Of a stretch of DNA of 46,936 bases, positions 44,039-46,936 are shown piece after piece. Position 1 is the stretch's first letter. Every line of letters begins with the position of its first letter. The notes below the pieces were generated by a model, which saw nothing but the letters and a program-made list of their open reading frames with translations, was not told the origin of the DNA and made no database searches. Source of the stretch: a virus; IMG/VR virus record IMGVR_UViG_3300028173_000017. One strand, written 5' to 3'. The position numbers were made by a program, and so were the translations under genes.

Positions 44039-44386
44039 ATGACAGAAGGACAGGCAGCGGTTCTAACGATTGCGATGGGAATGGCACCCGACATATCCTT
44101 ATTTGAATCATGGGAAACCAATGACACGAATGGCGAGGTTGCTGTCAGGTTTTCGTTTGTGATTCCAGATGGTCGAAAGATTGTTGGCAGGATCCGACCG
44201 GAAGGCTATGGCTATGTCATGTTTGATGAAGCTGGTGGCGACACGTGCGACTGGGACGAGTTTACGCAGTATGTCGAGGTCCCAGCAGGCGTACTTTGTA
44301 CTTGGCCATTCAAGTCGGGCTTCAATTATGAGCTCCTGTTATTCAATCAACGCCACACAAGAGAGTTGGTAAACAATGACACCTAA
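44039..44386 (+). CDS. MTPxQ tandem-paralog family, divergent first copy
   Basis: AGGAGGGG RBS; N-terminus MTEGQAAVLTIAMGMAPDISLFESW. Confidence 0.5.
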   Translation: MTEGQAAVLTIAMGMAPDISLFESWETNDTNGEVAVRFSFVIPDGRKIVGRIRPEGYGYVMFDEAGGDTCDWDEFTQYVEVPAGVLCTWPFKSGFNYELLLFNQRHTRELVNNDT

Positions 44387-44855
44387 ACAAGCCCACATGA
44401 TGACCCGGGTTATGGAAGCTATTCCTGACGTATCGACGTTGGAGATGCGGGACCGCAACCCATCTGAAGCTGATTGGTACGGTGGAGTCCCTGATCATAG
44501 CATATATTTTAGGTTTGATTTGGCCGGGTTTGGCAGGATTGACGGCCGGATTAACGCAAGCGGAACACGCGGCTGCTTTACCTGCCCAGGATACTCAGAC
44601 ACCGCACGTGTCGGTAAGATAGCGGATGTCATTGGTTGCCCATCAGGATGCGAGATTCGAGTCGTTCCCCGCAATGCATTCTTTTCATTTCATGAAAAGG
44701 ATCAATTCATAAGTGCTGCCGACATGGCAAAATCTGTCGCAGCAAACAGCAAGACGGACATTTGCCTCTCGCTGGTCGAAGCTACGTCGTCGGGTATCGA
44801 GCCGCCTTTCCAAAAAAGGTACATGCGGGTCATCAAGAACAGGGATTTAGCATGA
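44376..44855 (+). CDS. MTPxQ tandem-paralog family copy
   Basis: MTPKQAHMMTRVMEAIPDVSTL. Confidence 0.55.
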   Translation: MTPKQAHMMTRVMEAIPDVSTLEMRDRNPSEADWYGGVPDHSIYFRFDLAGFGRIDGRINASGTRGCFTCPGYSDTARVGKIADVIGCPSGCEIRVVPRNAFFSFHEKDQFISAADMAKSVAANSKTDICLSLVEATSSGIEPPFQKRYMRVIKNRDLA

Positions 44856-45226
44856 CACCTGCACAATCATTGATGATGACCCGGGTTATGGAAGTAGTTC
44901 CTAATGCATCGACATTGAAGTTCGATAGTAGGAATGGCGACGTCGTTTGGTTTGAGTTCATATCACTAAACCACGGGCTGATTACGGGCTATGTGACACC
45001 GAATGGGAAAGGCGGACGCTTTCAATATGCTAAGGGACATTCAATCGTCCCGAGTGATGAACACCCCAAACTCGCGAGCATTCTCGAGTGCCCAGCAGGA
45101 TGCCATATGACCGAAGGTGGCCATGGCAACTGGATGTCATTTTGGATTGATGAAGTAAAGGACACATTCGAGACGGTTCGACCTGTCGGGGAACGAATGG
45201 GCAGCAGAGCCAGGAACTCATTATGA
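44852..45226 (+). CDS. MTPxQ tandem-paralog family copy
   Basis: MTPAQSLMMTRVMEVVPNASTL; ATGA overlap. Confidence 0.55.
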   Translation: MTPAQSLMMTRVMEVVPNASTLKFDSRNGDVVWFEFISLNHGLITGYVTPNGKGGRFQYAKGHSIVPSDEHPKLASILECPAGCHMTEGGHGNWMSFWIDEVKDTFETVRPVGERMGSRARNSL

Positions 45227-45594
45227 CACCACAACAAGCCAAAACAGTAACCATCATCATGGGCTGCATCGAGCCTTACTTGGACTCATTCAAGTGGCGA
45301 CATATGCCAATGCCAAACAAGAAAGTCGAGCGCCTCGGGTTCGAGTTCAAAGATGACAAAGGAAGGGTCGTGCTTGTTTCACTTGGTATTGAGCCGACAG
45401 GCGGAGAGTTTCGCTATGAAGAGTGGGACGTGCCGTTAATGGAAATGGGAACAGCTTTAGATCTGGCCAAATTAGTCAAGATGCCAGAACCGTTTCATAC
45501 ACACCTTTATAACGATTACGCCTGTGCCAACAACAAAATGGGCACCGGCTTCACGTTTTACACGCCCAACGCAACGTTGGTGTACACACCATGA
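45223..45594 (+). CDS. MTPxQ tandem-paralog family copy
   Basis: MTPQQAKTVTIIMGCIEPYLDSF; ATGA overlap. Confidence 0.5.
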   Translation: MTPQQAKTVTIIMGCIEPYLDSFKWRHMPMPNKKVERLGFEFKDDKGRVVLVSLGIEPTGGEFRYEEWDVPLMEMGTALDLAKLVKMPEPFHTHLYNDYACANNKMGTGFTFYTPNATLVYTP

Positions 45595-45959
45595 AACCTG
45601 AACAGATGAGTCTCCTAATCAGCATCATGGACAACGTGCCAGACCTGACGACATTTCGCTGGACTGACAACACGTTTTTCTCCGAGGCCGGCGTCGCTTT
45701 TGCATATGAAAGCGTCAATGGAAACAAGCTTCGAGGTCGTATTAACGAGAGCGGCCGCGGCGGGTATATAGAGAATAAAGAAACGCCTGTGCTGACAACG
45801 AGCAGATATGCCATGGAAACACTTTCTATGAATTTCAAGCTTCCTCCTGATTTCGCAGTCAAAATGATACCGAACCCAATCCAGCCTGGTGATGATGTTT
45901 ATAAGGCAGCACCCAGGCTGATTTGTGGTTTCGCGTTCTCAAAGGATCCGCTATCATGA
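45591..45959 (+). CDS. MTPxQ tandem-paralog family copy
   Basis: MKPEQMSLLISIMDNVPDLTTF; ATGA overlap. Confidence 0.5.
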   Translation: MKPEQMSLLISIMDNVPDLTTFRWTDNTFFSEAGVAFAYESVNGNKLRGRINESGRGGYIENKETPVLTTSRYAMETLSMNFKLPPDFAVKMIPNPIQPGDDVYKAAPRLICGFAFSKDPLS

Positions 45960-46222
45960 ATGCCATCCAAACCAAAGCTGTCATCGAGTTCATGAACGAG
46001 TATGGCGCCGAAAATGTCCATGTCGCCGTTCCTTCAGGCACTCCAATGTGGTACTCCGGCCCGTTCTATATTGAATGTCAAGCCGAGCATGTGATATATT
46101 ACATGCATGGAAACAAGCATCGAGATAAAGGTCGACCTGCGGTGGTCGGTTTAGGTGGAGCCTGCTCCTGGTATGAACACGGCAAATACATTAAATCATG
46201 TACCATCGGGACGACATCATGA
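45956..46222 (+). CDS. hypothetical protein, possibly a divergent MTPxQ family member
   Basis: MNAIQTKAVIEFMNEYG; ATGA overlap. Confidence 0.4.
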   Translation: MNAIQTKAVIEFMNEYGAENVHVAVPSGTPMWYSGPFYIECQAEHVIYYMHGNKHRDKGRPAVVGLGGACSWYEHGKYIKSCTIGTTS

Positions 46223-46605
46223 CACCAGCACAATCACATATCCTGACACGCCTGATGAACTGTATTCCAGACCTGTCGACACTAAACATCGAAATCCGCC
46301 AGGGAGAGTTGTGGTGTGAATGGGTGGATGCCGGCTTGCACATGCAGGCGTTAATCGAACAAGACGCAACATATGGCTGGGTGACGGCAAACGGATCACA
46401 TGATGGAATACCGGCTGGATTAGCAAAGTGCTATGAATGTATGACGTACGTTGCTGATTGTGGCGTCGACGCATGCACAGAGAATGATCCAGAGCATCCA
46501 AGGTATAATCAAATGGGTGGGGCAGTATGGCAACGAGCCGATCCGGAGGAGCAGGTTTCTGTTATGAACTGGAGCATCGAACCGTATGATTTCACCGCAG
46601 CATAG
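46219..46605 (+). CDS. MTPxQ tandem-paralog family copy
   Basis: MTPAQSHILTRLMNCIPDLSTL; ATGA overlap. Confidence 0.55.
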   Translation: MTPAQSHILTRLMNCIPDLSTLNIEIRQGELWCEWVDAGLHMQALIEQDATYGWVTANGSHDGIPAGLAKCYECMTYVADCGVDACTENDPEHPRYNQMGGAVWQRADPEEQVSVMNWSIEPYDFTAA

Positions 46606-46619
46606 GAAAGGATAATCGA

Positions 46620-46936
46620 ATGACACCGGCACAATCACATATCGCAACACATATCATGAACTGTATCCCAGACCTGTCGACGCTCACCGTTTCCAACGAC
46701 ACCGAAGCCGTATGGCTTATATGGAAGGATGACGGGGTGAATATGCTTGGGATGATTAGCGATAAAGCCAAGACAGGCTGGATAAGCGTACCAAACCCCG
46801 GACGCAGGGCGGTATTGGAGAAGTATTGCAATGCCATACAGTCTATTACACCATCGATTGAGTTTAAAAGACCGGATGCTGAGCCATTGCTTGATGGCGA
46901 CATAACCATGGTATGGACAATCGAGGAAACACCATG
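46620..46936 (+). CDS. MTPxQ tandem-paralog family copy, 3'-truncated by the window
   Basis: MTPAQSHIATHIMNCIPDLSTL; ORF runs off the window end. Confidence 0.5.
   Translation, partial: MTPAQSHIATHIMNCIPDLSTLTVSNDTEAVWLIWKDDGVNMLGMISDKAKTGWISVPNPGRRAVLEKYCNAIQSITPSIEFKRPDAEPLLDGDITMVWTIEETP

Follow-up and report, generated by a model that had tools for sequence, protein, structure and literature searches.

The viral record IMGVR_UViG_3300028173_000017 was analysed as one stretch of 46,936 nucleotides (the window), in which eight co-oriented small genes occupy the + strand from position 44039 to the end at 46936. They belong to one operon of nine back-to-back small genes in the genome of an uncultured marine jumbo phage, and eight of the nine are diverged copies of one unannotated protein. 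The source is assigned to a phage because the window carries NAMPT, tRNA nucleotidyltransferase, endolysin and HNH genes and the contigs extend up to 318 kb; other window genes are at most 55% identical to those of cultured phages. The genes were numbered 1-9 by array position. Gene 1 (44039-44386) encodes 115 amino acids (aa) with an isoelectric point (pI) of 4.3 and starts MTEGQ (MTEGQAAVLTIAMGMAPDISLF...). It is followed by gene 2 (44376-44855, 159 aa), gene 3 (44852-45226, 124 aa), gene 4 (45223-45594, 123 aa, MTPQQAKTVTIIMGCIEPYLDSF), the most divergent member, and gene 5 (45591-45959, 122 aa). Gene 6 (45956-46222, 88 aa, MNAIQ) belongs to another family and sits within the array, and genes 7, 8 and 9 are consequently paralogs 6, 7 and 8. 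Gene 7 (46219-46605) encodes 128 aa with a pI of 4.2 and six Cys, gene 8 starts at 46620 and is cut by the window end at 46936, and gene 9 lies outside the window.

Public metagenome data contain 18 contigs, from at least six different samples, that encode the exact 128-aa protein of gene 7. The longest falls in the 0.2-1 Mb class, and a cluster record lists a longest contig of 318,267 bp. Over their overlap with the window, contigs L001-L005 are 99.97-100% identical to it, and L006 is 99.66% identical. Beyond the window, these contigs of the same phage supply the rest of gene 8 (105 aa in L001, 116 aa in L002), gene 9 (112 aa), a gene-free gap of ~940 bp, and then dozens of genes of 55-163 aa, mostly shorter than 100 aa. 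The full array consists of nine genes, eight of them paralogous. A preliminary description, made from the letters of the window alone, had listed a tandem array of seven to eight small paralogs that runs off the window. The open reading frames (ORFs) and their quoted N-termini were found as described, the MTEGQ start of gene 1 being an addition to those quoted, and seven of the eight window genes are demonstrable paralogs; the array does leave the window, but only by one and a third genes before the gap is reached.

A candidate promoter lies upstream of gene 1 at 43991-44019 on the + strand and consists of GTGTAA, 14 nt and TGGTATAAT, with an extended -10 element and a 17-bp spacing between the hexamers. 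The Shine-Dalgarno sequence of gene 1, read from the sequence, is AAGGAGG at 44028-44034, 4 nt ahead of the ATG at 44039. The pattern GTGTAA-N14-TGNTATAAT occurs in 12 exact copies in the window, all on the + strand, against 0 expected in shuffles, and those checked sit just upstream of ORF starts. The copies are located at 14225-14253, 23289-23317, 27887-27915, 29888-29916, 34973-35001, 35670-35698, 37325-37353, 37661-37689, 38585-38613, 39365-39393, 43035-43063 and 43991-44019, and an alignment of seven of them shows GTGTAA and GTGGTATAAT to be invariant. Judged by this recurrence and spacing, the pattern represents a putative phage promoter class with sigma70 geometry (extended -10, 17-bp spacer). 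The pattern is often extended to CGTGTAAGA...CGTGGTATAATAT, and it has zero copies in the first 14 kb of the window.

Within the array, no copy of this promoter class is present, and a scan for sigma70-consensus promoters and terminators returned chance-level matches only. The stop and start codons of consecutive genes overlap as ATGA at five junctions (44852, 45223, 45591, 45956 and 46219), which bears out the chaining of ORFs reported in the preliminary description. Genes 1 and 2 overlap by 11 nt, and genes 7 and 8 are separated by a 14-nt spacer that carries its own GAAAGGA ribosome-binding site. From the single upstream promoter, the lack of internal ones and the ATGA overlaps, the array is predicted to be a single, translationally coupled operon. 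The overlap also fixes A as the first base of codon 2, which partly explains why residue 2 is T, K or N. The same promoter class heads an RNA ligase gene at the start of a gene run with the NAMPT gene, a metallophosphatase gene, a DUF2201 gene at the start of a run with a denV-like gene, and another small-gene trio. Since it is common to accessory, repair and metabolic genes, it is consistent with a non-structural expression of the array; from the promoter geometry and the genes that share the promoter, the array may be expressed early.

Paralogy was assessed by BLASTP and by leave-one-out profiles, each built from the other members, with expectation values (E) computed for 2,000 sequences. 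In the pairwise comparison, genes 2 and 3 are 30% identical over 135 aa (E 3e-14), genes 7 and 8 are 50% identical over 56 aa (E 1e-18), and most remaining pairs share 25-55% identity over 27-91 aa. The leave-one-out profiles recover seven window genes and gene 9 with E of 4e-5 to 3e-18 over 60-91 residues, namely gene 1 (E 2.4e-6, residues 1-84), genes 2 and 3 (3e-12 each), gene 4 (3.9e-5, residues 1-64), gene 5 (8.5e-10), gene 7 (3.7e-15), and gene 8 (3e-16). Scored in addition against a profile trained without it, gene 9 reached E 4.7e-18. The likeness between copies thus reaches well beyond the first 10 residues. The idea of a conserved N-terminal module followed by divergent C-termini is only approximately right: with more relatives aligned, homology extends over the full length of the protein and takes in a conserved C-terminal strand (...M-x-W-x-I...) that appears once distant relatives are added, and the part of variable length lies in the middle. 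The Cys richness ascribed to several copies is weak, with 1-6 Cys per protein and zero conserved positions. A 170-aa protein (P0009) with an apparent fusion of gene 5 to an unrelated C-terminus stems from a 643-bp contig at 1x coverage and was treated as an assembly chimera.

The exception to paralogy is gene 6, which gives no match in the leave-one-out test that the seven other window genes pass. Its relative is a 90-aa gene beyond the array (L001 12219-12491; 38% identity, E 3e-11), with which it forms a two-member family. Gene 6 and the array family have only the N-terminal helix motif in common (M1, Q5, M13). Both members of the pair carry the motif HGNKH-D-G-PAV...W...G, and one copy stands inside the array and the other just past the gap. 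A MORN-like identity of this family found no support in Pfam.

The array proteins have pI values of 4.2-7.6 and net charges of -14 to +1. Neither a signal peptide nor a membrane helix was detected, the maximal 19-residue Kyte-Doolittle value being 1.25 (cut-off 1.6), and the annotated window genes include no structural ones; the receptor-like diversity module proposed in the preliminary description is not supported by these observations. AlphaFold was run on gene 2 with an alignment of eight sequences, giving a predicted local distance difference test score (pLDDT) of 66, and on gene 7 with 14 family members, giving a pLDDT of 85.5 and a predicted template modelling score (pTM) of 0.77. The gene 7 model runs from a helix (residues 3-13) through four strands (23-27, 30-37, 40-46 and 52-57) and a second helix (66-76) into strands 81-89, 93-96, 102-105 and 112-120. 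Both independent runs yield the same alpha-beta4-alpha-beta topology. The predicted fold is a generic two-layer alpha/beta sandwich and points to no function, and a search of BFVD with the low-confidence model returned nothing.

Searches for known families were negative. No copy matched a family in Pfam-A, PHROGs v4, NCBIfam or PADLOC (best E 0.078), the family profile reached a best E of 1.3 against PDB sequences, and DNA and protein/tblastn searches of 50,697 GenBank phage records returned no array relative. Six clusters with E up to 0.01 came from an index of 5.8 billion proteins, and of these, five are near-identical to members of the present array. A HMMER scan of 1.84 billion representative proteins gave 24 matches, about 18 of which are small proteins (63-170 aa) with the N-terminal signature of the family; those of the latter that were traced to contigs all occur in related phages of the same lineage. 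By these searches, the family appears to be confined to uncultured phages of a single lineage, which includes at least one marine member, represented by a TARA contig. Matches to giant Big_9/cadherin proteins were not accepted as homology, since E values down to 3e-21 arise only through the summing of 8-17 repeats that score at most 10 bits each (individual E >7e4). P0010, P0013, P0015 and similar proteins, all outside the window, reach E 1e-12 to 1e-21 by such summed weak repeats, the per-repeat scores having been checked in P0010. The case is a caution for profile searches that use short queries rich in beta-hairpins.

The array was compared between this phage, the TARA relative (L011/L013) and a third relative (L007-L009). 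The gene order by protein length is 115-159-124-123-122-88-128-105/116-112 aa in this phage. It is 115-123-122-87-121-103-105 aa in the TARA relative, which lacks genes 2 and 3; both genes are also missing from the third relative, where a remnant of gene 8 (63 aa, truncated at the N-terminus) is followed by proteins of 130-110-110 aa in a different order. The three phages therefore carry 9, 7 and 3 (plus one remnant) array genes. Nei-Gojobori estimates of the ratio of nonsynonymous to synonymous divergence (dN/dS) against the TARA phage were obtained slot by slot. In the conserved slots the ratio is 0.07-0.11, the range spanned by gene 1 (94% aa identity, dN/dS 0.08), gene 4 (93%, 0.11) and gene 6 (93%, at the same position), and four of five flanking genes show the same values (0.07-0.12). 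The ratio rises to 0.31-0.4 in gene 5 (77% identity, 0.4), gene 8 (82%, 0.31) and gene 9 (0.34).

Two slots have been exchanged. Gene 7 is only 34% identical to the protein in the corresponding TARA slot, with 73% identity in the N-terminal 22 residues and 24% in the remainder, and its dN/dS is not estimable with dS saturated; gene 9 behaves alike (35% overall, 77% over the N-terminal 22 residues, 24% in the remainder). Against the third relative, the counterpart of gene 5 in L007 is 42% identical, and dN amounts to 0.32-0.59 in the three array genes of full length and to 0.23 in the gene 8 remnant, compared with 0.02-0.15 in flanking genes. At the nucleotide level (blastn), the array genes align to this relative over their first 63-67 nt (78-87%), and gene 8 also over one 201-nt stretch. 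Turnover is also visible between two strains (L001 and L002), which differ at 34 positions in 10 kb, 28 of them clustered in 140 nt where genes 8 and 9 meet; one change converts ATGA into ATGG, so that the stop codon of gene 8 is lost and residue 2 of gene 9 is altered. This patch (L001 10705-10843, equivalent to window positions ~46923-47061) covers the end of gene 8 and the first 43 codons of gene 9. It looks like a conversion or recombination tract, and its coincidence with the window end may be the reason for the assembly break there. The family was thus rightly called hypervariable as far as gene counts, the two swapped slots and the 140-nt patch are concerned, but genes 1, 4 and 6 remain 93-94% identical. 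Overall, the array compares as a mosaic of strongly conserved slots and of slots that seem to have been swapped or converted.

Between 43900 and 46936, repeated DNA is limited to the 65-nt 5' ends of the genes, at 63-85% identity, and a role of this conserved segment as a recombination anchor is plausible. The first 22 codons are no less diverged at synonymous sites than the rest of the gene, and nucleotide identity follows amino-acid identity; conservation of the N-terminus therefore acts on the peptide and not on DNA or RNA. A 5' DNA or RNA element was ruled out by the frequent synonymous changes in the segment. Variation of the type produced by diversity-generating retroelements or shufflons received no support, neither a reverse transcriptase nor a recombinase being found among the annotated window genes. 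The 65-nt repeats could also drive unequal recombination, and a near-neutral expansion may be envisaged in which duplications promoted by the repeated 5' sequence are tolerated by the large genome, most copies lacking an adaptive role of their own. The truncated remnant in one relative and the variable copy number agree with such a process. We regard it as very unlikely, given that every copy is found intact and in identical form in many samples, that dN/dS is 0.08-0.4, and that the paralogs are old (20-50% identity, with saturated synonymous sites). The same dN/dS values, together with the identical intact copies on the 18 contigs, argue that each copy is functional.

The N-terminal helix motif is not restricted to the array. 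A regular expression for the helix signature finds 11 matches in the window, where 0.015 would be expected; each lies at the start of a + strand ORF, and they correspond to the eight array genes and to a tandem trio at 37735-37977, 37974-38261 and 38258-38518 (+ strand; 80, 95 and 86 aa), which is preceded by the same promoter type at 37661-37689. The motif common to trio and array reads M-T-x-x-Q-x3-h-T-x-h-M (h, hydrophobic), and the remainder of the trio proteins is not alignable with the array. Six genes downstream of the array, at L001 16033-16287, 16308-16523, 17284-17493, 17490-17756, 17746-18054 and 19039-19377, start likewise (MTAEQLTIVTKMVG...) and align with the trio as one family of 69-112 aa (A7; helix motif MTxxQLxxVTKxM), for which paralogy was tested inside the trio alone (pairwise E 1e-6 to 3e-9). 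This family is likewise confined to the same phage lineage. Profile-profile comparison of the array with the trio alone aligns 16 columns only (P 0.0094), and with the six downstream genes added to the trio it again aligns only the N-terminal 16 columns (P 1.7e-4, probability 49%). A motif of 13-16 residues accordingly heads at least three otherwise unalignable families with about 19 genes in total: the array, the pair formed by gene 6 (45956) and the gene at L001 12219, and the trio with the six downstream genes. These families would either descend from one very old fold in which the helix is the most constrained part, or share the helix as a functional tag.

The second possibility underlies the main rival explanation, in which the array proteins are packaged or ejected virion-internal proteins and the N-terminal helix is a targeting tag by which a diverse set of small proteins is brought into the head and injected along with the DNA. 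The spread of the motif over unalignable families, its strict placement at ORF starts and the retention of only the first 22 residues in swapped slots all speak for packaging. Cleavage motifs of prohead proteases are L/I-x-E in T4 and S/A/G-x-E in phiKZ-like phages. No conserved Glu-type cleavage motif follows the helix of the array proteins, whose residues 20-23 read STLE, STLK, DSFK, TTFR, STLN or STLT, with SLFE also present, and AlphaFold places the helix in the core of the domain with a pLDDT of ~96. No match to internal or ejection proteins was obtained in PHROGs, and the window lacks annotated structural genes; a weaker argument is that the promoter class is that of metabolic and repair genes. 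The internal proteins of T4 have been described as highly diverse defence proteins with only the targeting sequence in common (PMC3012670), and one of them, IPI*, is a compact alpha/beta protein that inhibits a host restriction enzyme (PMC3012670). The array resembles T4-type internal proteins (IPI, IPII, IPIII and the polymorphic IP loci of T-even phages) in the clustering of small proteins, in extreme diversity between related phages, and in a short N-terminal segment that is kept while the body is replaced. Unlike them, its members are true paralogs over the whole domain, with homology running along the entire protein and the helix predicted to be part of the fold; they have no sequence similarity to IPs and no L/I-x-E site, and neither the genomic context nor the promoter class points to late or structural expression. 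Packaging of the array proteins is therefore considered unlikely.

A broader version of the tag idea is not tied to packaging. The helix M-T-(P/A)-x-Q-x3-h-T-x-h-M might act as a portable recognition tag on about 19 proteins with at least three unrelated body types, directing them to a common partner or destination. Candidates are the capsid, with co-injection after loading, a compartment built by the phage, and a chaperone dedicated to these proteins. We consider this general role of the helix improbable as well.

A gene-free stretch of ~900-940 bp follows the array in all three related phages (L001 11054-11994, L011 10318-11217, L007 3829-4756) and may be an origin or have a regulatory role. 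Its L001 version includes a 30-nt direct repeat (2.4 copies, 11554-11626) as well as a duplicated CACCCAGTCCTTTACGTT; an Rfam scan of the stretch gave nothing credible, and it has no terminator. If the array proteins were regulators or adaptors internal to the phage, they would have nucleic acid or the phage's own transcription or replication apparatus as binding partner, MotA-like double-wing DNA binders being one example. Their vicinity to this conserved region with direct repeats agrees with such a role, as does the strong purifying selection on several copies, which is of the strength found in core genes. Most copies are acidic or neutral (pI 4.2-7.6), which argues against DNA binding, and a threefold variation in copy number between close relatives is unusual for core regulators. 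A regulatory role is thus judged to be quite unlikely.

We favour, at a probability of roughly 45%, the view that the array proteins are a panel of soluble cytoplasmic host-directed binders or inhibitors that serve host takeover or counter-defence, one of the roles that the preliminary description had put forward for the array. This view is based on the anatomy of the operon and its accessory-gene context, on the differences in charge between the copies and the purifying selection that acts on them, and on the turnover of the family and its confinement to one lineage. Anatomy, paralogy, lineage restriction, turnover and purifying selection come from the comparisons above, and the fold from prediction, and it is the host-directed binding role and the timing of expression that we infer. 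In the proposed mechanism, the sigma70-geometry phage promoter and the strong ribosome-binding site would drive gene 1, and the later genes would be translationally coupled through their overlapping stop and start codons, so that all copies are made together. Each copy would present a common scaffold, with the N-terminal helix lying on a four-stranded sheet followed by a second helix and a second sheet, and the copies would differ in their loops, C-terminal half and net charge. The family would evolve via duplication, loss and cassette replacement, apparently anchored on the conserved 5' 65 nt, and individual copies would be adapted to different host targets or to variants of one target.

Several observations weigh against a host-directed panel. 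No homology or experimental link connects the array to any host-takeover or anti-defence protein, and searches of Pfam, PHROGs, PADLOC and other profiles linked no copy to an anti-defence or defence family. Several copies are as conserved as their housekeeping neighbours (dN/dS ~0.1), which differs from a simple arms-race expectation for every member. In addition, the sigma70-like geometry of the promoter is no proof of early expression. The strongly acidic, family-wide surface of DNA-mimic anti-restriction proteins of the Ocr, Arn and Ugi type is not found in the array.

A bank of immunity-type neutralisers, which would block toxins of host abortive-infection or toxin-antitoxin systems or of competing elements, would form a sub-case of the host-directed binder panel and not a distinct mechanism. 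Polymorphic toxin systems carry tandem arrays of small diverged alpha/beta immunity paralogs with presence/absence polymorphism, and the array shows the same tandem diverged small alpha/beta paralogs and a variable presence of copies between relatives. It differs from such arrays in its phage setting; no copy matches a Pfam immunity family, and among the annotated window genes no toxin domain occurs, nor does any toxin gene adjoin the array. Toxin neutralisation is accordingly rated as rather improbable.

Lineage-specific tandem families of small accessory genes are well known in large phages, and it is the array family itself that is new and unannotated. Like the hyperplastic or accessory regions of large and jumbo phages, the array is a run of co-oriented small ORFans that varies between close relatives and lies among auxiliary metabolic genes. 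T4 amplifications that overcome toxIN, the so-called gene accordions, reportedly consist of recent, near-identical tandem copies of counter-defence genes that form by recombination under pressure from host defence and raise dosage; the array similarly comprises tandem copies of a small phage gene, but these are ancient (20-50% identity) and functionally diverged. Jumbo phages show other lineage-specific expansions, such as the ~35 zinc-ribbon copies in Bacillus phage G (PMC7824862). The array differs from these in that its family lies outside Pfam and PHROGs, in its defined operon architecture, and in an N-terminal motif common to further families.

Other features of the window were recorded alongside the array. 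The three genes directly upstream of it (43083-44003; 91, 112 and 105 aa) are each weakly similar to one 80-aa gene of L007, with E values in gene order of 6e-6, 6e-3 and 2e-4 in a tiny database, and they may represent another small Cys-containing tandem family. An NAD salvage pair at 16368-18778 combines a 334-aa cytidylyltransferase/Nudix fusion with a 469-aa nicotinamide phosphoribosyltransferase, whose identity to its counterparts in cultured phages is 55% or lower. A NUDIX gene is located at 24927-25415, and two RNA ligase genes at 1362-2021 and 14282-15187. The gene at 22016-23032 encodes a short, 338-aa adenylosuccinate synthetase homologue (PF00709, E 3e-78; phrog_1211) of the size of phage PurZ enzymes, and the genome might therefore contain 2-aminoadenine. 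An 870-aa protein encoded at 5552-8164 carries a major-vault-protein shoulder domain (PF11978, E 5e-21) and a vault-repeat domain (PF17795, E 1e-8); it has no PHROG match and is unusual for a phage. Finally, a transfer-messenger RNA (tmRNA) with the tag peptide ANDNSEYSYAQAA and three tRNAs (Gly-GCC, Arg-TCG and Thr-GGT) are located at 24626-24985 and 5194-5423.

If the copies are indeed host-directed binders, the array would amount to a compact, naturally diversified library of small inhibitors, and the clear split between conserved and rapidly swapped slots guides the choice of the copies to test first. The N-terminal motif that the array has in common with unrelated small-protein families is the one feature that might hint at something more general, a targeting or docking tag. 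Were the helix to work in this manner, the phage would possess a tag-based effector delivery system in which the array provides an exchangeable set of cargo.

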